This document shows positions 6,602-29,665 of a stretch of DNA of 49,522 nucleotides, piece by piece. Origin of the DNA: Blastocatellia bacterium (GTDB taxonomy: Bacteria; Acidobacteriota; Blastocatellia; RBC074). How positions within the stretch are numbered: the first letter of the stretch is position 1; each line of letters begins with the position of its first letter. The stretch is from NCBI GenBank assembly GCA_035275805.1, contig DATEMG010000417.1, forward strand, positions 1-49,522. Reading direction: 5' to 3'. Under the pieces are notes generated by a model. It made no database searches. It was not told the DNA's origin and saw only the letters and a list, made by a program, of their open reading frames with translations. A program made the translations under genes and the position numbers.

Positions 6602-7291
6602 TTATATTGATTCTTTAGGTTCACTCTGCGGGTCCACGTCCCATTTCTTCCCGTATTCCAGAATCGGGTATTCGCGCCAGATCTTTTCCGCCATTTCTCG
6701 CCCGATGCGCTCAAGAAAATCTGTGGCGCTCGACCAGGGCCAGTCCTGCCATTTGTCAACGTGGCAGTGATGGATAGGATTGTTGTGGATGTAATTCACG
6801 GTCGCCCAAAAATGACGATACGATTTGATTGCCCGGTCAAAGCAATTATGCCAGACCTGTCGCCCGCGGCGCTGGTCTTCGCCATTCCATTTAAATGACC
6901 AGCGCCCATGGAACCTGCCGATCTCTTTGCGAAGCGCTTTGATCTGGTCGGTTTTGACCAAAATGTGATAATGGTTCGGCAGAATACACCAGGCGTAAAT
7001 GACGCCCGCGTAATTCCCGCAGACTTCAAGCAGGTCGTTTTCGCATTCGGTCATCCGCTCGTGGTTGACGCCGATGATGTGCGCGTGCTCGTAACAGGCT
7101 CCGGAAATGAAGAACTGTCTTTCGCCTTCAAAATTCCAATGCGGCGGCGAATGCCAGGGGCAACGTCGCTGTTGCCGATACGTTACGACCTCGTTCTGTT
7201 GTTCGGGCGAGAGATTGCGGTAGTAGTACATTTCCGAAATATCTTGGTAAATGAGTCGGCCGGCTGAAGCCGGTACTCTAAACGCTGTCAT
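6602..7291 (-). CDS. REP-associated tyrosine transposase-like protein (IS200/IS605 Y1 HUH family, COG1943 type)
   Basis: WCILPNHYHILV carries the HUH motif. RRGRQVWHNCFDRAI...NYIHNNPIHHCHVDKWQDWPWSS matches the RAYT C-terminal block containing the catalytic Tyr. The first 12 codons are encoded by a repeat arm, so the true start may be M21 (7231). Confidence 0.8.
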   Translation of the reverse strand: MTAFRVPASAGRLIYQDISEMYYYRNLSPEQQNEVVTYRQQRRCPWHSPPHWNFEGERQFFISGACYEHAHIIGVNHERMTECENDLLEVCGNYAGVIYAWCILPNHYHILVKTDQIKALRKEIGRFHGRWSFKWNGEDQRRGRQVWHNCFDRAIKSYRHFWATVNYIHNNPIHHCHVDKWQDWPWSSATDFLERIGREMAEKIWREYPILEYGKKWDVDPQSEPKESI

Positions 7292-8459: not shown

Positions 8460-8476
8460 TCGATGTTCTCCTTTGA

Positions 8477-8537
8477 CAATGTGGGACGGACCTTAGTCCC
8501 TCCTTGTTCACGGAGAGACTAGAGCCCGTCCCACATT
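8477..8537. repeat. Imperfect 26-nt inverted repeat (AATGTGGGACGG...TTAGTCCCTCC)
   Basis: Arm 8477-8503 pairs with arm 8512-8537 with about 4 mismatches. It lies immediately upstream of the oxidoreductase start. Confidence 0.6.
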
Positions 8538-8991
8538 ATGACACGCCATTTCCTTTATCCCGGTGACAAATTGTCACGTCAATCGCCGTCGCCCAAATCG
8601 TTGGAGGCGCGTTGGCCTTGCAGAATCAGCGCGTTGTAGGAATGCGGAGATCTGGCGCCCGTTTTGCACATACGATTGGCGTCCTTGATCGACACTACGG
8701 GATAAGGATCGAAAGTTTTCAAACTGTTCCCACTATTGAAGTCGGATTGCTGGTCCGAACAACTCCGAATCAGAGGTGGCCTCAATAAAGACGCCGCCTC
8801 TGATTGGGGCTGACCAACAATCCATTGTGTAGCCTCATCCGTCCTTTCAAGTGGCAGTGTCTTTGGGGGACCTGTCGCTGATAGGCGCAGTCGATGCTCT
8901 TCAATCGAGGCCCGAAGGGCATCGGCTGTCCTGATGAAAGGAGCAAAAGGACACCGTCAAAAGCAACATCGAGTAGCCCCCCCCAGGAAGA

Positions 8992-9039
8992 GGGTGACAG
9001 GTTAAGGCGTGTACCTGTCACCCTCATTCTATTTATAAT
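8992..9039 (+). promoter_or_regulatory. Perfect 11-bp palindromic stem (GGGTGACAGGT-N10-ACCTGTCACCC) followed by a TATAAT hexamer
   Basis: Stem arms are 8992-9002 and 9013-9023. TATAAT at 9034-9039 lies 44 nt upstream of the kinase ATG. No good -35 hexamer is present at 17 nt spacing, because the palindrome occupies that position. Confidence 0.3.
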
Positions 9040-9082
9040 GATTTTCCGCTCTCCATATGTTAAAACGCCCCGTATCCCGGAA

Positions 9083-11542
9083 ATGAGACTCCTCATCGGT
9101 AATTCATTCCGCACAATCATATGGGCGATCGCCATCGTCGTCATTTCGACGCTTGCGGCGATAGTAGTGATATGGCGCGCGCCGGCTTTGAAACTGGCGG
9201 CGCGCGACGCGCTGGTCCGCGCCCGCGGCGCATCGAGCCCGCCGGATGAGGTCGTCATCTTGGCGATCGACGAGGCTAGCCTTAAACGATTTGGGCGGTT
9301 CCCCTGGCCGCGAAGCCTGATGGCGCAAGCCATTAACAAACTCTCCGACGCGCGTCCTAAAGTGATAGCGCTCAATGTGCTCTATACCGATCCGACGAAT
9401 GAATCCGACGACGCGGCGCTCGCGGAAGCCATCAAACGCGCGGGTAATGTCGTGGTCGCCGCCCAACTGGACAAAACGCAACAAGGCGACGCCAAATGGA
9501 CGCGTCCACTCCCAACGATTGAAAACGCGGCCGCTGCCACGGGGCACGGCAATGTGCCGACAGACTCCGATGGCGTGGCGCGATTTCTGACTCTGCGCAA
9601 AACCGATAACGAAGGGAATCCGTTCTGGGCAATTGCGGTCGAGGTGATACGCGTCGGCGACGGCTTGCGGCCGGATGATGCGCGTGACGTGCCCGACGCA
9701 GTGATGATCGGTTCTCGCGCCATTCCAATCGAAGCGGAGGCGGAGTCCGACGCTATCTCGACGGGCGATGCGGGAAGTTCCCCGCAAACGTACCGCGCCA
9801 GCCAAATGGCGATTGACTACATCGGGCCGGCGGGTTCATTCGCCGATCGGACGACGAGCATCGCCGATCTGATTGACGGCCGCGCCGGACCCGAAAAATT
9901 CAACGGCAAATACGTCCTGATAGGCTTGACGGCGGCGGCGATGGGCGACCGCGTGGCCTCGCCGTTCGCCGGCCGGAATGACGAGCTGACGCCGGGCGTC
10001 GAAGTTTTGGCCAACGCGATCACGACAATCCTGCGCTCGAGTTTTTACGGAGAGACGTCCGATTGGGTTTCGGCGCTGTGGGCGGCGATTATCGCGGCCA
10101 TCGTGGTCGGCGCGGTGCTCCTGGCGCAGGGCAAGCGCGAATCTATAAAGCAGATCGCCGCGCTCCTGGGAATAGCGGCGCTGACACTGGGCTTTTCATA
10201 TCTCGCTTTCGCTCGCTGGAATGTCGAGCCGCCATTAGTTTCGGCATTGGTCTCGCTCGTCTTCGCGTCGCCTCTGGCGCTGCTGCTGCGTTCGCTGATG
10301 GTCAGCGCGAGCCTGGACGACCGGATCGCGGAGATGACGAGGGAGAGCGCGCGCCTGTCGCCGTTCGCAATCGATAACAAGGCGGTCGCCGCGAAGCTGG
10401 CCTGGTGGCCGCGTGGGGCGTCGCGCAAGGCCCGCGCGCTAGGCGCGCTTCAAGAGCGGCTGCTCGCGCGGACGCAGTTCGTAGACCGGGCGCTTCAATC
10501 AGTCGAAGACGGCCTTCTGATCGCCGACGCCGCAGGGCGCATCGCTTTCGCCAACCCGCGCGCCGCCAGCATCCTCGGACTCGGCCAGCGCTCGCTGCTC
10601 GGCAGCAATTTGTTCGACCGCTTGAGTGAAATGGAGTACGGCGCGGACAGTCCCGCCGCCGACCGGGCCGGCGCCCTGTCGCGATTGCTCTACGATCGCG
10701 TCGCGATCGAACGGGAAATTGTTGTGGGGACGGCGGAGCCGCGATATTATACGCTGCGAATGGCGGCGGTCAGCGATGATTCGGGCGGGCTTGGCGCTCC
10801 GCTGGGCGTCGTCGCCACACTTTCTGATGTCACAAAACAGCGCGAGTTGCAGCGAATGCAGAACGACGTGATGCGCCTCGTGACGCACGAGATGAAGACG
10901 CCGTTGACCGCCATCAAGGGGATGAGCGAAGTGATGATTAAGTTCGACCCCGGCGCGGAGAAGCGGCGCGAGATGAACGCCGCGATCAACGAGGCGACCG
11001 AGCGGATGGCGCGGATGATTGACGATTATCTGGACCTGACGCGCCTTGAATCGGGCGCGCGAGAGACCCGACTGGCATGGCGCAAGGTCGAATCGCTGAT
11101 CGAACAGAATTTGCTGCTGCTCGATCCGGTCGCGGCCCGGCAGGGCATCACGCTCACCCGCAAGTTTGCGCCCGACTTGCCGCCGATTTTCGCCGACGCC
11201 GATCTGCTGACGCGCGCGCTGACGAACCTCGTCGCCAACGCGATCAAATACAGCCCCTCCGACACCGAGGTAGTGATCTCGGCCCAGGCCGGAGAAGACA
11301 ACCTGTTCATCACCGTCGCCGATCAAGGGTACGGAATTCCGCCGGAACACCTGGCGAGCATTTTCGAGAAATTCTTCCGCGTACCGCGCGTGGAAGACGC
11401 CGAGACGCCGGGAACAGGATTAGGGCTGGCGCTCGTCCGCGAGATAGCCGAATTGCACGGCGGGCGCGTTACGGTCGATAGCGAAGTCGGCGCTGGCTCG
11501 ATTTTTACTCTGCGATTGCCATTGAACCGGAAACCAATCTGA
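9083..11542 (+). CDS. CHASE2-domain sensor histidine kinase (CHASE2, 3 TM helices, PAS, HisKA, HATPase_c)
   Basis: The start is set at ATG 9083 (MRLLIGNSFRTIIWAIAIVVISTL). CHASE2 hallmarks: VVILAIDEASL..FGRFPWPR...IALNVLY. A hydrophobic block follows the extracytoplasmic domain. The PAS region reads LQSVEDGLLIADAAGRIAFANP. The H-box is VTHEMKTPLTAI. N/G boxes are NLVANAIKYSP and GTGLGLALV. Confidence 0.85.
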   Translation: MRLLIGNSFRTIIWAIAIVVISTLAAIVVIWRAPALKLAARDALVRARGASSPPDEVVILAIDEASLKRFGRFPWPRSLMAQAINKLSDARPKVIALNVLYTDPTNESDDAALAEAIKRAGNVVVAAQLDKTQQGDAKWTRPLPTIENAAAATGHGNVPTDSDGVARFLTLRKTDNEGNPFWAIAVEVIRVGDGLRPDDARDVPDAVMIGSRAIPIEAEAESDAISTGDAGSSPQTYRASQMAIDYIGPAGSFADRTTSIADLIDGRAGPEKFNGKYVLIGLTAAAMGDRVASPFAGRNDELTPGVEVLANAITTILRSSFYGETSDWVSALWAAIIAAIVVGAVLLAQGKRESIKQIAALLGIAALTLGFSYLAFARWNVEPPLVSALVSLVFASPLALLLRSLMVSASLDDRIAEMTRESARLSPFAIDNKAVAAKLAWWPRGASRKARALGALQERLLARTQFVDRALQSVEDGLLIADAAGRIAFANPRAASILGLGQRSLLGSNLFDRLSEMEYGADSPAADRAGALSRLLYDRVAIEREIVVGTAEPRYYTLRMAAVSDDSGGLGAPLGVVATLSDVTKQRELQRMQNDVMRLVTHEMKTPLTAIKGMSEVMIKFDPGAEKRREMNAAINEATERMARMIDDYLDLTRLESGARETRLAWRKVESLIEQNLLLLDPVAARQGITLTRKFAPDLPPIFADADLLTRALTNLVANAIKYSPSDTEVVISAQAGEDNLFITVADQGYGIPPEHLASIFEKFFRVPRVEDAETPGTGLGLALVREIAELHGGRVTVDSEVGAGSIFTLRLPLNRKPI

Positions 11543-11814
11543 ATCCAATTCACGTATTACTATTTAGCCAATAGTAGGATGGACTAAAATAGTTGTTAAA
11601 AAGCAAATGCGACAACAAGCGCGTAGCGATTCGCTGAATCGGTACGCCTTTCTCCGAAAGGTCGCGGTTCAACACATCGCGCCACGCTATAAACTAAGCG
11701 AGGTTGCGCTATTTTTTCAAAGGCCATTAGTCTGTCCCAGGTATTGTTGGCGGACAGACTTTAGTCTGTCCCACTTTAAAGGCGCCCCCATACACAAACG
11801 TTCTAACGCCACTA

Positions 11815-13272
11815 ATGACACAACCTCCCCAGATTTTGGTCGCCGACGACGATCGTCTGATTCGCCTGACCTTAGAGGCCGGATTGTCGCTGTACGGGTT
11901 TCGTGTCTCGCTCGCCAGGAGCGGGCGTGAAGCGCTCGACGCGGCCTTGGAAAAGAGGTTCGACGGTATCATCAGCGACGTTTATATGCCGGACGGCGAC
12001 GGGTTGATGGTGCTGCGCGAACTGCGCACTTCACAACCGGAGACGCCGATCATCCTGATGACCGCCGTTGGATCGGTCAATCTGGCGGTGCGCGCGATCG
12101 AAGAGGGCGCGACCGATTTCATTGCCAAGCCGTTCGAGGTCGAAGCCCTGGCCGATCTGTTACGCCGGCATTTGAAAGCCCGCGTCGATACCGGCGCGCG
12201 CCCTCATTCTCCACCGACGGAAGATGACGGCGCCTCGCAGCCGGAGGACTGGTTTCCCACAGTAAATGAGGAGGGTTTTTCGGGATTAATTGGACGCAGC
12301 CCCGCGATGGTCAAGACCTATAAACTGATCGCGCATGCGGCGCGGATGGACGCCACCGTCCTCATCACCGGCGAATCCGGCGCCGGAAAGGAGTTGGCGG
12401 CCCGCGCCATTCATGACTTCAGCGTGCGGCGCGACAAGGCTTTCATAGCGATCAACTGTTCGGGGCTTACAGACACGCTGCTGGAGGCGGAGCTGTTCGG
12501 ACACTCGAAAGGCGCGTTCACAGGCGCGGTCACGGAGCGCGCAGGTCTCTTCGAGGCCGCTGACGGCGGGACGCTGTTCCTGGACGAACTGGCTTCGACG
12601 AGCGCGGCGTTTCAGGCCAGCCTGCTGCGCGTGTTGCAGTCGGGCGAGGTGCGGCGCGTCGGCTCCACGCAAATCCGGCGCGTGAACGTCCGCGTCATCG
12701 GCGCGACCAACATGCCGCTGCGCGAGCTGGCCGAGCGGGGGGGCTTCCGCTCCGACCTCTATTACCGCTTGAGCGTCCTGACCGTCGACATGCCGCCGCT
12801 CAGAGAGCGGATGGGGGATGTGGAACTGCTCGCCCAACATTTCCTTCGGAAGCTGGGCGGCGGGACTGCCCCCTCCCAGATGACACGTGAAGCCCTCGAA
12901 GCCCTTCGCCACTATCACTTTCCCGGCAACGTCCGCGAATTGGAAAATGCGCTGACCCGGGCTGTCGCCCTTGCGACAAACGGCCCGATCACGCTAGATT
13001 GTTTGCCGCCGCATATTGCTGAAATCAATGAAAAACAGGCCCCCTCGACCGACGACCCGATGCGGAACCTAGCGAGCGACTGGCCTTCCCTGGACGAGTT
13101 ACAGCGCCGCTACCTTGCGATAGCGCTAGAGAAGAATCACGGCAACCGCCAACGCACAGCCGATATGCTCGGAATCACTCGACGCACGATTCAACGTCTG
13201 ATCGCGCGATACAATCTGAACGCGTTGAACGAAGCGGAAAGCCTTGATGGCTATGATGCCTTTGAAGAATGA
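11815..13272 (+). CDS. Sigma-54-dependent response regulator (NtrC family: REC, AAA+ activator domain, Fis-type HTH)
   Basis: REC: ILVADDD...DVYMPDGDG. Walker A: GESGAGKE. The GAFTGA loop is intact ([10 protein letters not shown]). The C-terminal HTH reads [20 protein letters not shown]. Confidence 0.9.
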
Positions 13273-13281
13273 AAGTTGGCT

Positions 13282-13311
13282 GTGGGCAGTTTCGATCCCC
13301 ACACTGCCCAC
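13282..13311 (+). terminator. Hairpin GTGGGCAGT-N12-ACTGCCCAC downstream of the response regulator gene
   Basis: 9-bp stem, 10 nt after the stop codon. There is no immediate U-run, so terminator function is uncertain. Confidence 0.3.
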
Positions 13312-13348
13312 GGCCCACTGCTACTTTTCGTCTGAAGGACTGTGAGAG

Positions 13349-16300
13349 ATGATTTTGCGTATAGATTCCATATCGCTCCGGCGCGGGATTCGCTGGTCGT
13401 GTCTCCTGTTCCTCCTAGCCGCTTCAATTCAATGTTTGGGCGCGACAGCGCTGGCGCAGGCCGTGGATGCGCGCGTCGCGAGCGTCAAGGGGACGGCCCT
13501 GCGACGCAACAATCAACGCTCCTTCATCCTCGCCCGCGGGGACTCGCTGAACCCCGGCGACGAGGTCGACACGCGCGGCGGCGGGCGTGTGGTCATCGAG
13601 CTGACCGACGGCAGCGTGGTCATCGTCCATCCGAATTCGCGAATCGTCATTAGCAATTTCCGCGCCGCCGCGTCGATGCGCGAGATGTTTCGGATCCTCA
13701 TAGGGCGCGTTCGCATCAAGGTCGCCCATTACGGCGGGAAACCGAATCCCTACCGGGTCAACAGCCCGACGGCGTCGATTCTGGTGCGCGGCACTGAGTT
13801 CAGCGTAGCCGTCGAGCCTTCCGGCGACACCAGGGTGGAAGTTTACGAGGGCCTGGTCGAGGTGCAGAGCCTCAGCGATTCGAGCCGCCGCGCTTTCCTT
13901 TCCAAAGGACAAGGCGCGCTGTTGAAGCCGAATGAAGACATCCGCTTCTACACTCCCGGCCAGGGGAACAGGACCGAGGAACGCGACGGCAGGAACGACC
14001 GCGGTGACGGCTCAAACGACGGCGATGGCGGCTCAGACGACGGCGCCGACGACAGAGACGACAAGGCAAGCCTTAATGCCAAGACGAACTCTAATTCCGG
14101 CGCCTCTCTCAACGCCAACACCAGCCTTAATACCAAGACGAACGTCAACGCTGGCAATAATGCCGACGACGGAGACGACATCGCCCGTCTTAATGTCAAG
14201 ACCGCCAAGACGAACGCCAACACCGGCGGCAATGCCAACACGAACGCCAACGCCGGCCATAATGCCGACACGGACGACAACGTCGGCGTGAATGCCAAGG
14301 CGGCCAAGACGAACGCCAACGCCGGCGCCAATGCCAAGACGAACGTCAACACGAACGCCAGCGCCGCCATGAAGGACAATGGCGGCGTGAATGCCAAGTC
14401 GAAGGACAACGGCGGCGTGAATGTCAAGGCGAACGCTAACGCCACCGAGAACGCCAACGCCGGCGTCAGCGCCAAGACTAAGGACAACGGCGGCGTTAAT
14501 GCCAAGACGAGCGCCAACGCCGTCACGAAGGACAATGGCGGCATTAATGCCAAGACGAACGCTAACTCCGCCGAGAAGGACAACGGGGGCGTTAATGCCA
14601 AGACTAAGGACAACGGCGGCGTTAATGCCAAGACAAACGCCAACGCCGGCGCCAGCGTCGCCGAGAAGGACAACGGCGGCGTGAATGCCAAGGCGAAGGA
14701 CAACGGCGGCGTGAATGCCAAGACGAACGCCAACGCCGGCGCCAGCGCCGCCGAGAAGGACAACGGTGGCGTAAATGCCAAAGCGAAGGACAACGGCGGC
14801 GTTAATGCCAAGACGAACGCCAACGCCGGCGTCGGCTCCGCCACGAACGCCAACGCCGGCCTTACTACCGCCACGAACGACGTCGGCCTTACTACCGCCA
14901 CGAACGACAACGTCGGCGCCGGCGTTGCCGGGAACGCCAACGCTGGCGCCAATGCCAGCCCTAACGCCAACGCCAAGCGCAATGACGTTGGTGGCGGAGC
15001 CGGGGCGGCTGGGAAGTCCGCCGCGCGTCGCCCTGACGGCAGTAGGATGGGAAGAGAGAGAGAGACGTCTGTAGAAGCGGCGGGAAAATCGGCGGCGCGC
15101 CCCTCTGGCCATGATAACCCGACTCGCGACGACGTGGCCGCCGATGCGACTACGAGCGCCAGGACATTACTGACCAATAACTCCGAAAGATATGTTGACA
15201 GCCTGGCTATGCGGGGCTGGTCGCTTCCGCTTCAGCGCTTCGCCGCATTTGCAGACTCCCATTTCGACAGCCTCGATAACCCGGCCTATTCGACCGAATT
15301 CGCTTCGATCGAAGGAAGAGCCTGGCTGATCCCATTTTTTAACAAATCGCGGAGCAGCGATTTGCAAAGCGGCTCCGCCGGTTTCCCCTTATCTGGCAAT
15401 CCTATAGGCCCATTCGATTCTGGCCTCCTGGCGCAGGCCGATTTCTTCATCCCGTTGGAGAAAGTACGCATGGTGATTGGCGGAGCGGTCGCCATCTCCA
15501 GCGACCGGTCTCAATCTTTAACCGTGGACCAGGCGTCCGCCTCACTGATCGGCCTCCTTCCTGGAGGCGGCCAGGTCTCTCGCAACATCGCCGTCTCGAC
15601 CGAGACAACTTCGATCACGGGTTCGCTGATGGCGGCGCGGCGCTTCGGCGATGACGGCCGCACGAGCGTCGGCGCCGGAGTGGAGTGGGTCAGCAGCGGC
15701 GACGACTTGCGCGGTCAGGTCGCGCTGGTGGACGGCGCCCGAGCGCTCGCTATCGAAGGTCTCGAAGCGGAGGCTCAAATAAGACGGCTCCGCTTCCGGC
15801 TCGGGATTACGCGCGCATTAGGCCGCGGCCACAAACTCGGTCTGGTTTATAGCCACGAGTTGGCGACCGCCGACGATGGCGACCGTTCGCGATTCTTCAC
15901 AGGCGGGCCGCTCGGCCTCGATTCGACGCGCCAGGAGGGACGGTCGTCGTCGGTCTCCATCAGATTACGCGGGCTGCTCACTCGGCGCCTGTTTTACGGC
16001 CTCCAAGGCTCCTTGCTCTGGGGCGAGAGCGATGGACAGATTCGTCGCTCGGCCGTCACGGACTCGACCACGCGGGCCGATGTGAATAGCGCCGCCCTCG
16101 GCTTCGGTGTGGGATTCGCTTTGCGGCGGGCGACGGTCTTGAGCTCGGACTTCGCCTTCGGCCTCTCGGGCATACACGAGGAACGGCTGGAAGACGCGAC
16201 CGGGAATCTGGTTGAGGGCAGGCGAGAGCGCGGGCGCTTCGTATCCGGGCGCGTGGGGTTACAAACAGACGTCTGGCGCAGCATGTTCTTCAGCGCGTCG

Positions 16301-16558
16301 ACGCTGGTTTTCAGGCGGGCGGACACGACCGACCTCGACCTCCGTCCCGATCTTTTCGGCCGGCGATTGACAAGTCTCGGCCTGGTCGAATTGAGTGGAC
16401 GCTCGCGCCGGAACTCGACGAGCATATTCTCGGACTTCGGCTCCGGCTGGCGTTTCAACCGGAATATGTTGGCCGAGTATATTTTCTCGATCAATAACGG
16501 TCTGGGGCCGACGCGACATGTTTTCCTATTGCGCTACACTTTCAAACGCGAGGATTGA
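13349..16558 (+). CDS. Exported FecR-domain protein with a long low-complexity repeat linker and a beta-barrel-like C-terminal domain
   Basis: 1069 aa. Signal peptide: LLFLLAASIQCLGATALAQA. FecR-like beta-sandwich block: GDEVDTRGGGRVVIELTDGSVVIVHPNSRIVI...ILVRGTEFSVAV...VEVYEGLVEV. About 350 aa of N/A/G/K/D repeats follow (KDNGGVNAKTNANAG...). The last ~470 aa show alternating hydrophobic strands and end in ...HVFLLRYTFKRED. Confidence 0.8.
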   Translation: MILRIDSISLRRGIRWSCLLFLLAASIQCLGATALAQAVDARVASVKGTALRRNNQRSFILARGDSLNPGDEVDTRGGGRVVIELTDGSVVIVHPNSRIVISNFRAAASMREMFRILIGRVRIKVAHYGGKPNPYRVNSPTASILVRGTEFSVAVEPSGDTRVEVYEGLVEVQSLSDSSRRAFLSKGQGALLKPNEDIRFYTPGQGNRTEERDGRNDRGDGSNDGDGGSDDGADDRDDKASLNAKTNSNSGASLNANTSLNTKTNVNAGNNADDGDDIARLNVKTAKTNANTGGNANTNANAGHNADTDDNVGVNAKAAKTNANAGANAKTNVNTNASAAMKDNGGVNAKSKDNGGVNVKANANATENANAGVSAKTKDNGGVNAKTSANAVTKDNGGINAKTNANSAEKDNGGVNAKTKDNGGVNAKTNANAGASVAEKDNGGVNAKAKDNGGVNAKTNANAGASAAEKDNGGVNAKAKDNGGVNAKTNANAGVGSATNANAGLTTATNDVGLTTATNDNVGAGVAGNANAGANASPNANAKRNDVGGGAGAAGKSAARRPDGSRMGRERETSVEAAGKSAARPSGHDNPTRDDVAADATTSARTLLTNNSERYVDSLAMRGWSLPLQRFAAFADSHFDSLDNPAYSTEFASIEGRAWLIPFFNKSRSSDLQSGSAGFPLSGNPIGPFDSGLLAQADFFIPLEKVRMVIGGAVAISSDRSQSLTVDQASASLIGLLPGGGQVSRNIAVSTETTSITGSLMAARRFGDDGRTSVGAGVEWVSSGDDLRGQVALVDGARALAIEGLEAEAQIRRLRFRLGITRALGRGHKLGLVYSHELATADDGDRSRFFTGGPLGLDSTRQEGRSSSVSIRLRGLLTRRLFYGLQGSLLWGESDGQIRRSAVTDSTTRADVNSAALGFGVGFALRRATVLSSDFAFGLSGIHEERLEDATGNLVEGRRERGRFVSGRVGLQTDVWRSMFFSASTLVFRRADTTDLDLRPDLFGRRLTSLGLVELSGRSRRNSTSIFSDFGSGWRFNRNMLAEYIFSINNGLGPTRHVFLLRYTFKRED
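14570..14839 (+). repeat. 3 x 90-nt near-identical in-frame tandem repeat inside the FecR-domain gene
   Basis: Units start at 14570, 14660 and 14750. Each encodes AEKDNGGVNAK[T/A]KDNGGVNAKTNANAG(ASx). More degenerate copies extend across roughly 13964-15029. Confidence 0.85.
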
Positions 16559-16719: not shown

Positions 16720-16997
16720 GATCCCATCAAGTGGTGGTATTTTCTAGCGGGATCTTTGCGATGGCTTTTCAGCCGGTAACTTTGTCTTGGACGCGTGTGC
16801 GCTCCAGGACCTGAGAAGATCGTCGCATGGCGCTTGAGTGGGTGCTGCGCCATATTCATCGCGGGAAATCAAAAAACGCTGTTCATATTCACCAAGCCCC
16901 GTATCCCTCACAATTTGTGTCCCTCTGATATTTCGCCCATTTTTCATGGGAATACATATACGGAATACTGATCGCGAAAGCGTTTGGGCTATTGCTT

Positions 16998-18275
16998 ATG
17001 CTGTCTGACAAAATCAACAGATTGCCGATAAGTCGCGTAGACTCCCCTCCAATAAACTCGTTCGAAGAACAGAACGCCGTTATCTTGATTAACAAGCAAG
17101 GCAACATTCTGTCTTTCGAGCATTCCAGGCGCAATTCTGGCGCCGTGACAAACCGAGATCGCTCAGAGAGCTCAACCGCTCAACCCAGCAAACCCGTCAC
17201 TTACGGCCTCAAGAACGGTTCGGAGGAGGTTGAAGTGGAAAGACGGCGAGCGGAGCTTGCCGCCATGGCGCGCGCCGCTGAGGCCAGAGCGAAGGAGGCG
17301 GAAGAGAAGGCCCAACAGGCTGAGGGCAGGCTGGAACAAGAATTGAGGGAGCGGCTGCTTGCCGAGCAGCGACTCAGAGAGCTTGAAGAGGATCGCTTGC
17401 GAAAACTGCAGGCGGGGATACCGATAGAGGCTCCGCAGCCTCGCACGGCTTCATGGGCGCAGCCGGGGACGGAAGCGCGGATGAAAGAGGCCGAAACGCG
17501 AGCCAAAGAATCCCAGACATGGGCCAAAGGGGCTGAAACCGAAATCCAAAGCCTCAGGGGCAAGCTGGCGGAGTCCGAGCAGAAGAGAACCAAGGCAGAG
17601 GCCGTTGCGCGAGCCGCGAGCGATAAATCGCGTGAACTGGAATTGCAAGCCAATACCACCAGGGGTGCGTTGGCGGATGCGAATCGGAAGACGGCCGAGG
17701 CGGAGAACACCTCGCGGATCATGGAGGAGAAGGCCCGAGCAATGGAAATTCTTCTCGCCGAAGCGGAATCCGTCGGGCGCCAGGCCACGGAAAAATATCA
17801 AACCGTCGAAGCCGAATTGCAGTCCGAAGCTAAACATAGGGCTGCGGCCGAACATAAACTCCAAGAGTTTGAGGACGAATTGGGTTCCTATCTCGAACTA
17901 GACTGGTCGAAGGACGAACCTGATATGAGCCGGGCCGTCGTCGTGCGGCAGGGTGGCGGGACCGAGGGGGGCCCAGCCCAGTTCCATGCTCAGGTCGAGG
18001 CCGAGCGGAGGGCGCGCCGGGAGGCGGAGGAAGCTCGATCCACCCTCGAATTCAGAATTCGGGATATGGAAAAGTCGCTTCGCATCGCCGAGGAGAACAA
18101 CCGCCAGATCGCCGCGTTCAATTTGGCGAAATCCGCCGATGACGATCAGACGTACACCGTAAAGAAACGAAAAGGGTACAAATACGAATTCAAGTTCTTT
18201 GGCTACGGCATGGCGGTCGCGCTGCTGTTAGTCGCATTGACTGTGCTGATTGCGATGGTCTCCTTGCAGATGTGA
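16998..18275 (+). CDS. Tail-anchored coiled-coil protein (E/A/R/K-rich, single C-terminal TM helix)
   Basis: About 425 aa. The track start 16992 is TTG; the first ATG is 16998. Long heptad-like segments (RRRAELAAMARAAEARAKEAEEKAQQAEGRLEQELRERLLAEQRLRELEE...). The C-terminus FFGYGMAVALLLVALTVLIAMVSLQM is a TM anchor. I recognise no family. Confidence 0.6.
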   Translation: MLSDKINRLPISRVDSPPINSFEEQNAVILINKQGNILSFEHSRRNSGAVTNRDRSESSTAQPSKPVTYGLKNGSEEVEVERRRAELAAMARAAEARAKEAEEKAQQAEGRLEQELRERLLAEQRLRELEEDRLRKLQAGIPIEAPQPRTASWAQPGTEARMKEAETRAKESQTWAKGAETEIQSLRGKLAESEQKRTKAEAVARAASDKSRELELQANTTRGALADANRKTAEAENTSRIMEEKARAMEILLAEAESVGRQATEKYQTVEAELQSEAKHRAAAEHKLQEFEDELGSYLELDWSKDEPDMSRAVVVRQGGGTEGGPAQFHAQVEAERRARREAEEARSTLEFRIRDMEKSLRIAEENNRQIAAFNLAKSADDDQTYTVKKRKGYKYEFKFFGYGMAVALLLVALTVLIAMVSLQM

Positions 18276-21307: not shown

Positions 21308-23173
21308 ATGCAAGAAGACGTCATAAACGTGTTTTGCCTTTCACATGGCTTTAGCTTTCCGGTTCAGGGATCAAATCGGATAGTCATATGTAAGGAGAAT
21401 CATGTCTTAAGCTATAATTTCCCGCACTCAGGCAGATGGTTTTATTGCTGCCTGTGCCAGAAGTTTTGGGTCGCGCCCAAGGGAGATGACCGGCAAGACG
21501 CATACTCCAAACAATGCCCATCCTGCAACCTGATCAAAAAAGCCCGCTATTATTCATGCGACCAGTGTAACATCACAATGATTGACTCCCTGGGCGCGAT
21601 CAACCGTAAGGGAGTGCACATCACGCCTTGGGGGGCTCCGCATCCGCATTGTCCCGGATGTCGTCAGCTTCCAAAGTCCGTCCCTCAATCGCACGCCTGT
21701 CCTGAGTTAAACGGATTGCTTACCACGGCTCGCGCCCAATGCCCTTTCTGTGAAGGGCAAAAGGCGCCAGAAAGCGTGGTTGATGGAGAAGTATTGAGAG
21801 ACGAAGTTGAAACGCCGCGAGTTCGAAGCCTGGATGAACCTGCCACCCCTTCTATCGTCGTCCTGGAGGAGCTTGAAAGAAGGTCTTCCGAGATCAAGGC
21901 GCTCGAAGTCGAGGCCGAAGCGCGCGAAGCCAAAGCGCAGGAGAGATTGCGACAGGTCGAGGCCAGACTACGGCAGGAAATGGTACGGCGCTCAGAGGTG
22001 GAGCGGAAATCCCAGGAGATCGAAGATGATCTGAAGCGACAGCACGAAATCGACCAGGGCCGCATGGAATTTGTGAGAGCGGCGACGGAGGCCGCCGGGC
22101 GATTTGAGGAGGAGAGGAAAGCGCGCATCGCGGCTGAACACTCGAAAGCCGAGGCCGAAGCGAAACTGCGTGAGATGGACGTCAGCGCCTCCAAAGCTGA
22201 AGAGCGGCTCCGGCAGACCGACGCCGGGTTACAACAAGCCGACGCCAAATTAAAACAAGCCGAAGCCAAGTTAAAACAAGCCGAAGCCAAGTCGCAACAA
22301 ACCGAAGCCCAGTTACAACAAACTGAAACCCAGTTACAACAAACCGAAGCCGGATTAAAACAAGCCGAAGCCGGATTAAAACAAGCCGAAGCCGGGTTAC
22401 AACAAGCCCAAGCCAAGTTACAACAAACCGAAGCCGGGTTACAACGAGAGGCCTCGAAGCGATCTCTGGCCGAAGAGAGGGCAAATGAGATCGAGATTCG
22501 ACTCGCCGCCGATAACGCCAAAGTCGTGTCCGAAGCTGAGGCGAAAATCCAGGGAGTCAGAGCGGAGGCGCGGCGAATTGAAGAGAATTACAAGGCCGAA
22601 ATCGGCTGGATCAGGGACGAACTGGAAATGCTGACGGAATCGGCGAAGCTGGCCGAGGAGAATCACATCGCCGAGATTGCCAGAATCACGGCTGAGGCCG
22701 AGGCCCGGACACAGCAAGTCGAGGCGAATACACGCCAGCAATACCAAATCAAAGTCGAACAGGCGATAGCCAACACTCAGGCCGCGTTGTTCAATCTCGA
22801 GGAAACGCAGAGAGTATTGGATGAGACAGAAGCCCGGCGCCAGGAGATTGAAGCCAAAGCGCGCCAGGTCGAAAACCTTTGCCGCCGCTTATTTCTGATC
22901 TCGAAACTGAGTTTTACCTCCGCAGAACAGATCATTGCAGAAACTCTCGGCGCCGGCGATGAAAATGAGAAAGACGCCCTGGTAATCCCCCTCGAACTTG
23001 CGACAGACACATACTCGGACGACTTCTCTTCCGAGGCGCCGGCGTCAGCCGCAAATGGTTCGCTGGATTACGAAAATTACCAGTTTTCAGCCAGGATGAA
23101 AGCCTTGTTCGAGGCTGCGGCGCGCGTGAACGCAACCGACGACAAGGGTGGCAGAGCGGATAGTGGGGAGTAA
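21308..23173 (+). CDS. Cys-rich (multi zinc-ribbon-like) N-terminal domain fused to a long coiled coil
   Basis: 621 aa. The first ~150 aa contain five CxxC pairs (CCLC, CPSC, CDQC, CPGC, CPFC). The remainder is E/A/Q/K/R coiled coil, including 11 heptads of the type QAEAKLK / QTEAGLQ. Confidence 0.7.
   Translation: MQEDVINVFCLSHGFSFPVQGSNRIVICKENHVLSYNFPHSGRWFYCCLCQKFWVAPKGDDRQDAYSKQCPSCNLIKKARYYSCDQCNITMIDSLGAINRKGVHITPWGAPHPHCPGCRQLPKSVPQSHACPELNGLLTTARAQCPFCEGQKAPESVVDGEVLRDEVETPRVRSLDEPATPSIVVLEELERRSSEIKALEVEAEAREAKAQERLRQVEARLRQEMVRRSEVERKSQEIEDDLKRQHEIDQGRMEFVRAATEAAGRFEEERKARIAAEHSKAEAEAKLREMDVSASKAEERLRQTDAGLQQADAKLKQAEAKLKQAEAKSQQTEAQLQQTETQLQQTEAGLKQAEAGLKQAEAGLQQAQAKLQQTEAGLQREASKRSLAEERANEIEIRLAADNAKVVSEAEAKIQGVRAEARRIEENYKAEIGWIRDELEMLTESAKLAEENHIAEIARITAEAEARTQQVEANTRQQYQIKVEQAIANTQAALFNLEETQRVLDETEARRQEIEAKARQVENLCRRLFLISKLSFTSAEQIIAETLGAGDENEKDALVIPLELATDTYSDDFSSEAPASAANGSLDYENYQFSARMKALFEAAARVNATDDKGGRADSGE
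22214..22444 (+). repeat. 11 x 21-nt in-frame tandem repeat (one coiled-coil heptad per unit)
   Basis: Consecutive units of the type CAAGCCGAAGCCAAGTTAAAA run from 22214 to 22444. They encode Q[AT][ED]A[KGQ]L[KQ]. Confidence 0.9.
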
Positions 23174-23341: not shown

Positions 23342-24217
23342 ATGTTTTCTCAATCCCTTAAACACGCTTCTTCCACTCCTTCTCTCAACTCATCAACATG
23401 TCAGGTCGATTTGTCACGACGATCGTTTCGGTCGGTTTCGGATTTCGGGAAAGCGAAGCGGGACGGCCGGAAGATTTCGATGCTTAGCGTCTACGACGCG
23501 GTTTTCGCCAAGCTGGCAGTCGATGCCGGCGTGAACACTCTCCTCATAGGTGACAGTGTGGCGATGGCGCTCTACGGGTTCGAGAGCACGATTCACGCCA
23601 CGGTCGAGATGATCGCCGCTCACGTCGGGGCTGTTCGCCGGGCCTGTCCAGGCGCCTTTCTAGTCGCCGATCTTCCCTTCGGCTCGTATCGCAGAGGGTT
23701 GAAGACCGCCATGAAGGCAGTCGAGGCGATGGCTCGCGCGGGGGCGAGCGCGGTAAAGCTCGAAGGTGTCGCGGGAAATGAAAAGATCATCTCCCACATC
23801 ATTGAATCGGGCATTCCCGTCATGGGCCACATCGGATTGACGCCGCAATCCGTGCTCGCGCTCGGAGGGTATAAAGTACAGGGAGGAACTGAAGAGGGAG
23901 CGGCCCGGCTTATCGAAGACGCCAAGAAGCTTGAAGACCTTGGAGCTTTTTCTCTCGTCTTGGAATGCGTCAGCCGTAGCCTGGGTTCTCGCATATCCTC
24001 CCATCTGTCCATACCGGTTATAGGAATCGGCGCCGGCGTGGAGGTCGACGGGCAGGTGCTTGTGGCGTCCGATCTCTTAGGCCTGTCGCCGGGCCGCTCT
24101 CCCCGCTTTGTCCGCAGATATCTTGACGGCGCCACGATGGTGGCGAATGCCTTCGAGGAATTTTGTCGACAGGTCGGCCAAACGCAATACCCGAGCGAGT
24201 CGGAGAGCTACGATTGA
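23342..24217 (+). CDS. panB: 3-methyl-2-oxobutanoate hydroxymethyltransferase (ketopantoate hydroxymethyltransferase)
   Basis: KISMLSVYDAVFAKLAVDAGVNTLLIGDSVAMALYGFESTIHATVEMIAAHVGAVRR...FLVADLPFGSY...AVKLEG...IPVMGHIGLTPQS is a canonical PanB sequence. Confidence 0.9.
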   Translation: MFSQSLKHASSTPSLNSSTCQVDLSRRSFRSVSDFGKAKRDGRKISMLSVYDAVFAKLAVDAGVNTLLIGDSVAMALYGFESTIHATVEMIAAHVGAVRRACPGAFLVADLPFGSYRRGLKTAMKAVEAMARAGASAVKLEGVAGNEKIISHIIESGIPVMGHIGLTPQSVLALGGYKVQGGTEEGAARLIEDAKKLEDLGAFSLVLECVSRSLGSRISSHLSIPVIGIGAGVEVDGQVLVASDLLGLSPGRSPRFVRRYLDGATMVANAFEEFCRQVGQTQYPSESESYD

Positions 24218-25006
24218 ATGGATATGACAATGCAGGAATCACAACCCGAGATTCCATTGAATCATCCAAGGCGGATTTCTCTTCTGACCAGGGCCAGGCT
24301 CACCGAAGGGACTCGACAAGGAATTACGTCTCTTGACGGCCTCATCGCCCACGGAAGAGGTGAGGCGTTCGACTACCTCCTCGGAGAAAAAACGCGCGAT
24401 TTCGCTGCGCGGGCGATCTCAGCGGCGGCGGCTCTTTTTCTCGTCGCACGGCGTCCAGTGATTTCGGTGAACGGGAACGCGGCGGCTCTGGTCCCGCGAG
24501 AGTTGGCGGCCCTCTCGAAGCTTCTCGGTTCTCCGCTGGAAGTGAATCTCTTTCATGCGAGCCGGGAGCGCGAAGACCGAATACGCAACCAGCTTCTTTC
24601 GCACGGCGCAGCTCAGGTCCTTTTGCCGCAGCAGGAATTCGTTCTTCCTTACCTTGAGTCCAATCGGCGATTCGTGAACGGTCAGGGAATTTACCGAGCC
24701 GACGTGGTCTTTGTCCCGCTCGAAGACGGCGACCGCTGTGAAGCGCTCATTCGATCCGGACGAAAAGTCGTCACAATCGACTTGAACCCTTTATCCAGAA
24801 CCTCGAGGAAGGCTTCGATCACGATCGTCGATAATATTATCCGCGCGCTGCCGCTTCTCGTGGATCGTGTGACGACGCTCGCCTCGGAACCGAACTCGGC
24901 CCTGAATAATTTACTTGAGAATTATGACAACGGCCTGGCTCTTCGCGAAGCCGAGGCGACCTTGAGAGGGGTAGTTCAGGTCGCGGGCGACGATAAGAAA
25001 CCATAA
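24218..25006 (+). CDS. Archaeal-type phosphopantothenate synthetase homologue (4-phosphopantoate--beta-alanine ligase, DUF137/COG1701 family)
   Basis: HPRRISLLTRARLTEG...GLIAHGRGEAFDYLLGEKT...PVISVNGNAAALVP...EVNLFH...VFVPLEDGDRCEAL...VVTIDLNPLSRTSRKASITIVDNIIRALP matches the conserved blocks of archaeal PPS as I remember them. Its ATG directly follows the panB TGA. Confidence 0.75.
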   Translation: MDMTMQESQPEIPLNHPRRISLLTRARLTEGTRQGITSLDGLIAHGRGEAFDYLLGEKTRDFAARAISAAAALFLVARRPVISVNGNAAALVPRELAALSKLLGSPLEVNLFHASREREDRIRNQLLSHGAAQVLLPQQEFVLPYLESNRRFVNGQGIYRADVVFVPLEDGDRCEALIRSGRKVVTIDLNPLSRTSRKASITIVDNIIRALPLLVDRVTTLASEPNSALNNLLENYDNGLALREAEATLRGVVQVAGDDKKP

Positions 25007-25012
25007 AATGCG

Positions 25013-25102
25013 TGGTTCGTAGTCCCGCCTTCAGGCGGAAGCGTCAGCCGCAGACCCATTTCGCGATGCCTAACGCTTCCGCCTGAAGGCGGGACTACGA
25101 AC
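25013..25102. repeat. Perfect 31-nt inverted repeat (GGTTCGTAGTCCCGCCTTCAGGCGGAAGCGT), 28-nt spacer
   Basis: 25013-25043 is exactly complementary to 25072-25102. Each arm contains its own mini-hairpin CCGCCTTCAGGCGG. The element fills almost the entire PPS-coaX intergenic gap. Confidence 0.9.
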
Positions 25103-25124
25103 CGATTTTGTGAGGAGGGTCCGG

Positions 25125-25919
25125 ATGATTCTTTGCCTGGACGTAGGAAACACTCAGATCTTCGGCGGCGTCTTTAAAGACCACAAGCTCGTCAGCGCGT
25201 TTCGAAAGAGTTCGACGAATGTGGCGTCCTCTGACGAATTTGGTCTCTTCCTGCGCGCCGTTCTCCGTGAAAGCGGTTACGATCCGTTGGAGACGCGACA
25301 GGTGGCGATCTGTTCCGTCGTGCCGAACCTCGTTCATCCGCTACGCGCCGCGTGCCTCAAGTATTTCGGCGGCGAACCGTTTCTCCTCCAGCCGGGAGTG
25401 AAGACTGGGCTGAAGATCAATTACAGGAACCCGATCGAGGTGGGCGCCGACAGGATCGCGAACGCCGTCGGCGCCATTCATCAGTTCCCAAATACCAACC
25501 TCATCGTCCTCGACATGGGAACCGCGAGCACTATTTGCGCTGTCTCCGCCGACCGGCAATATCTCGGCGGGGCGATTACAGCCGGCCTACGAATCTCGAT
25601 GGAGGCGCTCGAAGCAAAAACCGCCCGCCTGCCGGCCGTCGAAATCCTCAAACCCCCTTCCGTGGTCGGACGCTCGACTGTAGAGAGCATTCAATCGGGG
25701 CTTTTTTTCGGCGCCGCCGGCTCGATCCGCGAGATCACAGGGCGGATGAAGGACGAATGTTTTCACGGGCAAACGGCGCCTTTAGTGATAGGCACCGGCG
25801 GGTTCAGCAGATTGTTTGAAGGGGAAGGTCTCTTTGATAAACTCATTCCGGATCTCGTCCTACACGGACTTTACACCGTTCTGCAGATGAATGGGGGTTC
25901 CGATGACGCGAATTCGTGA
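25125..25919 (+). CDS. coaX: Type III pantothenate kinase
   Basis: [17 protein letters not shown] is the typical CoaX N-terminus. Other matches: [24 protein letters not shown] and GTGGF. I chose ATG 25125 (GAGGAGG upstream) over the track's GTG 25110. Confidence 0.9.
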
Positions 25920-28918: not shown

Positions 28919-29665
28919 TCAGCCATCATCGGCCTGCGCCTTGCCGAGTCGCTGCACCGCCGCCGAGAACGCCGAGCTTCGGCGTCGCGAGACTGGGATT
29001 CGAGCGCCGCAGCCGAGCGACGCGATCAGCGCGCCTGTGTGGTCTCGAATTAACTCTCGCACGCCGTCGAGTCGAACCAGCGCGCGCCGGTGGGCGCGGA
29101 TGAAACCGTGTTTGCGCATGCGCTCTTCCAATAATTGAAGCGACTCGCGCAGGAAATAACTGCGCGGACCGACCCATAATTGCGCGTAATTGCCGGCCGC
29201 TTCGATCCAGTCAATTTCGGCTATGTTGAGCACCGTTGCGCCTCTTGAGGTTGTCACCACGATGTTCTCGTCGCGCGTCGCCGTCGCCGCCGAACGCAGC
29301 CGTTTCATCAAGCGCTTCATCGTTGCGGCGAATCGCGCCTCGCTTACTGGCTTCACCAGGTAGTCGATCGCCTCGGCCTCGAACGCGCGGACTGCGAACT
29401 GATCGAAGGCGGTAAGAAACACCACTTCCGGCATCCGCTCTACGGTTCGGCGGCGGATAACTTCGAAGCCGTCTATGCCCGGCATCTGAATGTCGAGGAA
29501 GATCACGTCCGGCGCCGAGGCGTTCAGCGCCGCGAGCGCCTCGGCGCCGTTGCGACATTCGCCGGCGACGGTGAACTCCGGAAACGCCGCCAACAGTTGT
29601 CGCACGCCCCGGCGCGCGGCCGGTTCGTCATCGACTATCAGGACTTTCCACTCAGCTTGCATCAT
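28919..29665 (-). CDS. LytR/AlgR-family response regulator (REC + LytTR DNA-binding domain)
   Basis: VLIVDDEPAARRGVRQLL...DVIFLDIQMPGIDGF forms the REC domain. C-terminal IDWIEAAGNYAQLWVG...Y.LRESL..LEERM....FIRAHRRALV is a LytTR domain. A 4-nt overlap links it to the upstream kinase gene. Confidence 0.9.
   Translation of the reverse strand: MMQAEWKVLIVDDEPAARRGVRQLLAAFPEFTVAGECRNGAEALAALNASAPDVIFLDIQMPGIDGFEVIRRRTVERMPEVVFLTAFDQFAVRAFEAEAIDYLVKPVSEARFAATMKRLMKRLRSAATATRDENIVVTTSRGATVLNIAEIDWIEAAGNYAQLWVGPRSYFLRESLQLLEERMRKHGFIRAHRRALVRLDGVRELIRDHTGALIASLGCGARIPVSRRRSSAFSAAVQRLGKAQADDG

Follow-up and report, generated by a model that had tools for sequence, protein, structure and literature searches.

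The CHASE2 domain was defined more than 20 years ago, and no ligand for it is reported in the literature within reach of the search made here. In Sinorhizobium meliloti, the outer-membrane β-barrel protein NsrA, whose barrel is described as residues 600–1200 (PMC7529298), is required for signal perception by the CHASE2 cyclases CyaK, CyaD1 and CyaD2 (PMC7529298, PMC13001267). CyaK is SMb20776 (PMC5498481); the locus tags of CyaD1 and CyaD2 are chromosomal (SMc) ones (PMC5498481, PMC13001267). The Burkholderia 'BiofilmReg' operon encodes a CreB-type response regulator, a LysM-FecR protein, a CHASE2-PAS histidine kinase and a DUF4136 protein, and PA4035/PA4036 of Pseudomonas aeruginosa is a two-gene version of it (PMC5192318). 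A published gene cluster of Campylobacterota combines a CHASE2 receptor with an outer-membrane FecR-domain protein, and its authors propose a single pathway (PMC9239204). The locus analyzed here lies on a 49,522-nt contig of a Blastocatellia bacterium (DATEMG010000417.1; "the window" refers to this whole stretch). It consists of three genes on one strand that encode a CHASE2-PAS histidine kinase, an NtrC-type sigma-54 activator and an exported protein in which a FecR module is joined to a C-terminal β-barrel.

On balance, and with modest confidence, these genes are read as an envelope-signalling operon in which a FecR module anchored in the outer membrane serves as the periplasmic partner of CHASE2 and the signal passes by phosphotransfer to the sigma-54 activator. 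Systems of this kind are known already through NsrA and the published gene clusters. A preliminary description of the window, made from the letters alone, had implied a greater novelty and was overstated in this respect: a relay between a barrel and CHASE2 is known genetically (PMC7529298, PMC13001267), and clusters of FecR and CHASE2 genes are published (PMC5192318, PMC9239204). What is new is the acidobacterial family with a 16-stranded barrel of its own, the predicted sigma-54 output with its palindrome and -24/-12-like pair, and a count of FecR neighbours for CHASE2 genes.

A conserved operon encoding a FecR-barrel protein

The product of the third gene begins with a signal peptide, identified by reading the sequence as MILRIDSISLRRGIRWSCLLFLLAASIQCLGATALA/QA. 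Pfam places a FecR domain (PF04773) at residues 71–171 (E=2.6e-17). No other significant Pfam family was found in this protein, including TPR and Autotransporter, and a search of the FecR region against sequences in the Protein Data Bank (PDB) returned no meaningful match. In relatives, the FecR module is 47–59% identical, CHASE2 47–60% and the barrel 34–44%; FecR roughly equals CHASE2 in conservation and exceeds the barrel to which it is fused.

The C-terminal 464 residues were modelled with AlphaFold2 using a 32-sequence alignment. The model contains 16 long antiparallel strands, with a predicted local distance difference test score (pLDDT) of 84.3 and a predicted template modelling score (pTM) of 0.81. 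When it was compared to the PDB using Foldseek, the top 50 matches were all outer-membrane barrels, with FadL the best (E=9.5e-12) and further matches to CymA, BcsC, BAM-associated barrels, TonB-dependent receptors and NalP. TM-scores were only about 0.43, a level at which the fold class is clear and no particular family is pointed to. The protein ends in ...FLLRYTFKRED, with no variation at the R, Y, T and F among 32 homologues. In the model, the loops after odd-numbered strands are long (22, 11, 5, 8, 6, 5, 18 and 5 aa) and the turns after even-numbered strands are short (4, 5, 2, 4, 2, 2 and 4 aa). This asymmetry is usual for outer-membrane proteins and suggests that the N-terminus, and the FecR module with it, is on the periplasmic side.

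The FecR module and the barrel are separated by a low-complexity linker (residues ~206–605) that is 20% A, 18% N and 13.5% G and contains tandem units of 30 and 90 bp at 14111–14918. Measured between profile envelopes, the FecR-barrel tether is 381 aa in this protein as compared to a family median of about 16 aa. A near-identical homologue, P0213 (1089 aa, 96.8% identical), differs by indels of 4, 4, 10 and 20 aa, all of which fall in the linker, and by 34 substitutions, of which 28 are in the linker, one in the FecR module and five in the barrel domain. The concentration of changes and the outlying tether length indicate that the linker is a fast-evolving, repeat-expanding spacer and not a conserved functional part of the family.

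The 464-aa barrel domain has 95 homologues. Nearly all of the full-length ones are proteins of 650–790 aa with an N-terminal FecR, and the named ones come from Blastocatellia, Pyrinomonadaceae or Acidobacteriota. When 1.84 billion representatives were searched exhaustively, only 196 representative clusters related to the barrel were obtained; most of the relatives listed cover the full query and are longer than ~600 aa, and these have 200–300 aa preceding the barrel. The barrel therefore exists essentially only as a FecR fusion. A degenerate FecR-barrel gene was seen in a Pyrinomonadaceae metagenome-assembled genome (MAG; L033, 4867–6321), with most of the FecR module missing and the C-terminus frameshifted. 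It was considered as a barrel-without-FecR variant and rejected because the open reading frame (ORF) is degenerate or frameshifted at both ends; this copy is either a pseudogene or an assembly error.

In the kinase, Pfam identifies CHASE2 at residues 27–343 (E=9e-50), followed by PAS, HisKA and HATPase_c. An AlphaFold2 model of residues 1–400 (nt 9083–10282; pLDDT 90.6, pTM 0.89) has helices at 8–32, 327–347, 353–379 and 385–399, the first transmembrane (TM) helix and three more. CHASE2 is thus flanked by TM helices in the model and the Pfam assignment, as is required of modules that pair a CHASE2 receptor with a FecR partner. Foldseek comparison of the CHASE2 model to the PDB found no structural neighbour (best E=0.12), so the fold gives no hint as to a binding partner or mechanism.

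The regulator matches Response_reg, Sigma54_activat (E=5e-64), AAA_lid_14 and HTH_8 in Pfam, with D55 as the acceptor aspartate and an intact GAFTGA at residues 233–238 (nt 12511–12528). The domain set of the NtrC family, a REC, an AAA+ domain with GAFTGA and an HTH_8 served by a HisKA/HATPase kinase, is fully present, and the regulator scores under every NCBIfam equivalog cut-off.

Conservation of the operon was assessed by contig look-ups and in a sample of CHASE2 loci. The sample was obtained by scanning one genome per species with a seven-sequence CHASE2 alignment, which gave 80 loci picked by similarity to an acidobacterial and a betaproteobacterial query and by two peptide patterns; local profiles of CHASE2, FecR, barrel and AAA+ were then run on all of them. 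A sigma-54 regulator gene is directly upstream of the barrel homologue in each of the six contigs looked up, over a range of barrel identities from 70% to 27%. An annotated CHASE2-PAS kinase precedes the regulator in five of them; the corresponding gene of the sixth (L009), 725 aa long and without Pfam annotation, runs off the contig. Among the 80 loci, the order kinase, sigma-54 regulator, FecR-barrel protein is found in 21 species-level genomes spanning Blastocatellia, Pyrinomonadaceae, Chloracidobacterium, Bryobacteraceae and Terriglobia, with 4-nt gene overlaps within the operon at several loci. This conserved synteny excludes a chance arrangement.

Six further acidobacterial loci (L035–L040) have the order short FecR protein (~280 aa), sigma-54 regulator, CHASE2 kinase, for example at L036 5675–10409 and L037 2562–9865. 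One MAG carries both this module and the barrel type (L015 and L036). Duplication of the module in paralogous form indicates that FecR, CHASE2 and the regulator travel as a unit. A CotH/LTD (Lamin-tail-domain) gene is inserted in the L037 module, and a similar insertion in L040 was judged by position only.

The preliminary description had given the three ORFs, their common direction and gaps of 272 and 76 nt between them, all of which are exact. Its domain calls (a CHASE2 kinase, an NtrC-type activator with intact GAFTGA and a FecR-type domain) are borne out by Pfam, and the third protein is as it was described, 1069 aa with a signal peptide, a FecR domain, a low-complexity linker and an LLRYTF end. 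Two of the three conditions on which that description had staked its reading are co-occurrence of the three genes in related genomes and a C-terminal region that folds as a membrane barrel. The genes do co-occur, in all six look-ups and 21 species-level genomes, and the C-terminal region has a 16-stranded fold of outer-membrane type by AlphaFold2 and Foldseek.

FecR genes beside CHASE2 genes

A co-directional FecR gene is found beside the CHASE2 gene at 66 of the 80 loci, and at 47 of the 51 with complete flanks on both sides. The association is very strong, near-obligatory across phyla in this sample, and confirms the statement of the preliminary description that FecR-domain genes often neighbour CHASE2 receptors. 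Since the sample is skewed toward relatives of the queries, the figure of 47/51 is not an unbiased census of CHASE2 proteins. All ten FecR calls that were sampled are confirmed by Pfam, with architectures of FecR alone, LysM-FecR, LysM-FecR-Ig, FecR-DUF5667 and one with a weak match to the Wzi barrel. Nearly every FecR ORF in the 1.05 Mb examined adjoins a CHASE2 gene; in Proteobacteria, Chloroflexota and others the FecR gene is directly upstream of it. The pairing is independent of the output domain, being found with cyclases (L010 and L012) and the window kinase by Pfam and with many kinases by precomputed annotation. It is equally independent of the fusion partner: FecR beside CHASE2 is seen fused to this barrel, to LysM, to an Ig-like domain, to TPR and another barrel, or to nothing. 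The weak Wzi match is to an outer-membrane barrel and belongs to a FecR protein encoded by a CHASE2 gene in an Armatimonadia MAG (L082, 1744–3480), which may be a third, independent FecR-barrel fusion.

The fusion to TPR and another barrel was found on pSymB of S. meliloti strain 1021. When probed with the CHASE2 domain, this plasmid yielded an ORF of ~1200 aa at 1567300–1570884 whose stop overlaps the start of a CHASE2-cyclase ORF on the same strand. Its product has a signal-peptide region, a Pfam FecR domain at residues 85–179, TPR repeats at ~400–600 and an unassigned C-terminus of ~600 aa. By its size, position and the published description, and not by locus tag, this ORF is probably NsrA. 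The same arrangement of a FecR-TPR ORF and a CHASE2-cyclase ORF is present in a Medicago isolate. A tblastn search of the plasmids with the FecR module missed the NsrA candidate, this search being too insensitive.

Putative promoter elements, leader and neighbouring genes

The divergent intergenic region ahead of the kinase gene contains a perfect palindrome of the form GTGACA-N3-TGTCAC (GTGACAAATTGTCAC) that is found nowhere else in the 49.5-kb window. A sigma-54 -24/-12-like element (TGGCGCCCGTTTTGCA) sits 90 nt downstream of it; no other site in the window comes as close as one mismatch to TGGCAC-N5-TTGCW. Both are kept in relatives; the -24/-12-like element is kept in the related locus L001. 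A degenerate form of the palindrome, G[CT]G[AG]CA-N3-TG[TC]C[AG]C, was counted 31 times in 23 loci of the family as compared to 0.49 expected. Fourteen of these loci carry it at the 5' end of the kinase gene, and in 12 it is paired with a -24/-12-like element at a spacing of 60–160 nt (0.01 expected). Additional pairs in relatives precede genes for CarboxypepD_reg/TonB-type outer-membrane proteins, a small OMP_b-brl protein, DUF5666-repeat secreted proteins and a radical-SAM enzyme. The recurrence of the pair in 12/23 loci points to autoregulation, and the simplest reading is positive autoregulation together with control of envelope proteins, with the palindrome as the predicted binding site of the regulator. 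Further sigma-54-like sites, past the barrel gene or in other parts of the window (895, 21132, 33715 and 39258), were rejected as two-mismatch sites with no palindrome.

The putative promoter is followed by a leader of ~400 nt. The intergenic region that contains it (8460–9100) aligns to L001 at 81% identity with frame-breaking indels. The leader has a predicted folding energy of -154.7 kcal/mol (z=-6.1) with hairpins at 8765–8808 and 8985–9030, and may be a cis-regulatory RNA; a search of the whole window against Rfam, leader included, gave no match. An in-frame ATG at 8894 was considered as the start of the kinase. In the alignment to L001 (78% identity over the CHASE2 region), indels break the frame from 8894 to 9083; the frame upstream of 9083 is therefore not conserved there and 9083 was retained. 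The coordinates of all features are given in Table 1.

Table 1. Features of the CHASE2/sigma-54/FecR-barrel operon and its upstream region in the window.
Feature	Position (nt)	Strand	Basis
Perfect palindrome GTGACAAATTGTCAC, candidate upstream activator site	8563-8577	unstranded	pattern search
Sigma-54 -24/-12-like element TGGCGCCCGTTTTGCA	8653-8668	+	consensus match
Structured ~400-nt leader, promoter to kinase start codon	8669-9082	+	alignment, folding
CHASE2-PAS histidine kinase gene	9083-11542	+	ORF + Pfam
CHASE2, periplasmic	9161-10111	+	Pfam
Kinase PAS	10478-10849	+	Pfam
Kinase HisKA, His602	10859-11056	+	Pfam
Kinase HATPase_c	11195-11527	+	Pfam
NtrC-type sigma-54 activator gene	11815-13272	+	ORF + Pfam, NCBIfam
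Signal-peptide/FecR/linker/barrel gene, 1069 aa	13349-16558	+	ORF + Pfam
Signal peptide, aa 1-37, ALA/QA	13349-13459	+	read from translation
Conserved FecR module, aa 38-205	13460-13963	+	Pfam FecR aa 71-171
A/N/G/D/T/K low-complexity linker, KDNGGVNAKT-like decapeptide repeats	13964-15163	+	composition, tandem repeats
C-terminal domain: short conserved helical segment (FDSLDNPAY), then 16-stranded β-barrel	15164-16555	+	AlphaFold2, Foldseek

The gap between the kinase and regulator genes (11543–11814) is 272 nt as compared to 57 nt in the closest relative. TTAGTCTGTCCCA stands in it twice in identical form (11727 and 11761), a hint of a small inserted or repeated element. In the 76-nt gap ahead of the FecR-barrel gene, a hairpin (CTGTGGGCAG...CTGCCCAC, 13281–13312) could act as a transcript attenuator or stabiliser; in many relatives the regulator and FecR-barrel genes instead overlap.

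Two genes upstream of the operon is an ORF for an IS200-like Y1 transposase (Y1_Tnp, E=5e-6; 6602–7291, minus strand). The window also contains a LytTR response regulator/His_kinase pair (28919–30927, minus strand), a PDZ-GAF-SpoIIE phosphatase (32334–34940) and pantothenate/CoA genes (23342–25919). Two long coiled-coil proteins, neither with a Pfam family above cut-off, are encoded downstream. One (16992–18275) has a C-terminal TM anchor and was considered as a fourth member of the operon. It was rejected, since the closest relative alone has a counterpart (52% identity) and the extra gene in L004 is not related to it. The other (21308–23173) has an N-terminal Cys-rich, zinc-ribbon-like region and AEAKLKQ-type repeats.

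Proposed relay and relation to known systems

In the proposed relay, the third protein would be seated in the outer membrane through its 16-stranded barrel, with the N-terminal FecR module held in the periplasm as a protein partner, or co-sensor, of the kinase's CHASE2 domain. A cue acting on the barrel or the outer membrane would alter the interaction between FecR and CHASE2, upon which the kinase would phosphorylate D55 of the regulator. The regulator would then bind the palindrome and switch on sigma-54 promoters, namely the operon's own promoter in the window and, in relatives, also those of genes for outer-membrane or secreted proteins. The near-obligatory pairing across phyla, together with the genetics of NsrA, which support a functional link, makes FecR as the direct input of CHASE2 a concrete and testable hypothesis, in which the two domains would touch and the signal would flow from the barrel protein to the kinase.

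Several observations weigh against this relay. The tether is short in most family members (median ~16 aa), the linker in the window being an exception. A short tether should put FecR just under the outer membrane while CHASE2 is clamped at the inner membrane, so contact needs a narrow periplasm or an extended geometry. The operon is apparently autoregulated, which leaves room for the barrel protein to be an output, either in addition to being an input or in place of it. The NsrA label of the pSymB ORF rests on size, position and published description. Finally, only NsrA among the FecR partners is known to be required for signalling by a CHASE2 receptor (PMC7529298), and perception of the one plant signal examined did not depend on smc02177, a FecR-domain gene next to cyaD1 (PMC5498481).

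The position of the gene inside an apparently autoregulated operon fits a second explanation, in which the FecR-barrel protein is an output, an outer-membrane channel with its expression under the control of the CHASE2 kinase and the sigma-54 regulator, and the FecR module gates or plugs the pore or binds something other than CHASE2. The other predicted targets in relatives are also outer-membrane proteins, the best structural neighbours of the barrel (FadL and CymA) are transport barrels, and a conserved helical segment lies ahead of it. This explanation is nevertheless unlikely. NsrA is required for signal perception and not merely regulated (PMC7529298), and a channel leaves unexplained the barrel-less FecR genes (LysM-FecR, short FecR) that stand beside CHASE2 and the pairing at 47/51 loci regardless of output. 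The TM-scores of ~0.43 to transporters also reflect generic barrel similarity.

FecR-family proteins are processed in the periplasm, and the FecR module could instead be an inhibitor or tether that locks CHASE2 off (or on) until a release, which proteolysis or a change in envelope spacing, for instance, could bring about. The system would then report the integrity or geometry of the envelope and not a ligand bound by the barrel. The context evidence is the same as for the co-sensor relay, and the very different tether lengths (16 to 381 aa), the outer-membrane protein regulon in relatives and the periplasmic processing of the family are compatible with it. However, the conserved cluster yielded neither a cleavage motif nor a protease gene, and NsrA acts positively in signal perception (PMC7529298); an inhibitor is judged improbable, a little more so than a channel.

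It is very improbable that the barrel displays the FecR module and linker on the cell surface in the manner of an autotransporter, in the role of an adhesin or a receptor with no connection to CHASE2. The order of signal peptide, passenger-like N-terminus, repetitive hypervariable linker and C-terminal barrel resembles type V secretion, the number of linker repeats varies between near-identical strains and NalP, one autotransporter barrel, is among the Foldseek matches. Against it, Pfam gives no match to Autotransporter, the strands number 16 and not 12, a linker long enough to pass through a pore is all but absent from most family members, FecR linked to CHASE2 elsewhere is fused to LysM, which binds peptidoglycan and is hence periplasmic, and the loop/turn asymmetry sets the N-terminus on the periplasmic side.

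A wider reading is put forward tentatively: CHASE2 in general may be a receiver for a protein partner, its "ligand" being the FecR domain of a co-encoded envelope protein, and not a small-molecule sensor. If so, the fusion partner of FecR would set the site at which a signal is picked up in the envelope: a barrel would place it at the outer membrane, as here and in NsrA, and LysM at the peptidoglycan, as in Proteobacteria, while some FecR proteins have no fusion partner. The acidobacterial operon would be one wiring of a widespread FecR-CHASE2 envelope relay that has so far not been recognised as such. The acidobacterial family offers a compact and well-conserved version of the module. Its palindrome and predicted promoter are recognisable and could serve as a reporter, and the natural range of tether lengths offers a way to study signal passage across the periplasm. 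In Acidobacteriota, a phylum common in soil and little explored by genetics, a conserved envelope-signalling operon and candidate target genes are identified.

The locus can be set beside known systems as follows. Type V autotransporters have a 12-stranded PF03797 barrel or an Omp85-type barrel with POTRA domains, whereas the barrel described here has 16 strands, no Pfam match and no POTRA. As in NtrB/NtrC systems, a HisKA/HATPase kinase is combined with a REC-AAA+(GAFTGA)-HTH_8 regulator and a candidate activator palindrome ~90–100 nt from a -24/-12-like element; unlike in those systems, the sensor is a periplasmic CHASE2 with an envelope partner encoded in the operon. As in FecA-FecR-FecI, a FecR domain (PF04773) would stand in the periplasm between an outer-membrane barrel and an inner-membrane signalling protein. 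The polarity is inverted, however, FecR being part of the outer-membrane protein and the inner-membrane partner being a CHASE2 kinase. The third protein has none of the cytoplasmic anti-sigma domain, single TM helix and FecR_C (STN-binding) domain of the Fec system, and its NCBIfam FecR score is 19.7 bits against a cut-off of 385. No gene for an extracytoplasmic function (ECF) sigma factor or an STN-type TonB-dependent transducer was found among the window ORFs of at least 150 aa that were scanned; relatives carry CarboxypepD_reg/Plug outer-membrane proteins downstream and no ECF sigma factor. Two suppositions of the preliminary description hold here: the FecR domain is not part of an anti-sigma factor, there being a signal peptide in place of the cytoplasmic domain and no FecR_C, and the relay would run without an ECF sigma factor.

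Of the published FecR-CHASE2 clusters, that of Campylobacterota differs in its cAMP output and in having TPR as a separate protein. BiofilmReg, an arrangement also found in Eleftheria and many Proteobacteria, is, like the window operon, a two-component system in which a CHASE2-PAS kinase and an adjacent exported FecR-domain protein are encoded in one operon. Its FecR protein is anchored on peptidoglycan by LysM, whereas that of the window would be anchored on the outer membrane by a barrel; its regulator is of the OmpR/CreB type and not a sigma-54 activator, and the gene orders differ.

NsrA shares with the window protein an outer-membrane barrel, and the pSymB ORF taken as NsrA also has an N-terminal FecR domain and lies on the same strand as a CHASE2 receptor gene, which it abuts. 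It differs in having ~200 aa of TPR repeats between FecR and the barrel and a barrel region of ~600 aa. Profile comparison (hhalign) of the family with the NsrA candidate aligned the FecR domains only (probability 93.5%), with no alignment between the barrels; with no TPR match either, the window protein is not filed as an NsrA orthologue. The gene order is partner then receptor in the NsrA system, and receptor, regulator, partner in the window. The two systems also differ in output: NsrA and CyaK act through a cyclase that feeds cAMP/Clr, and the window operon through a histidine kinase that would feed a sigma-54 activator.

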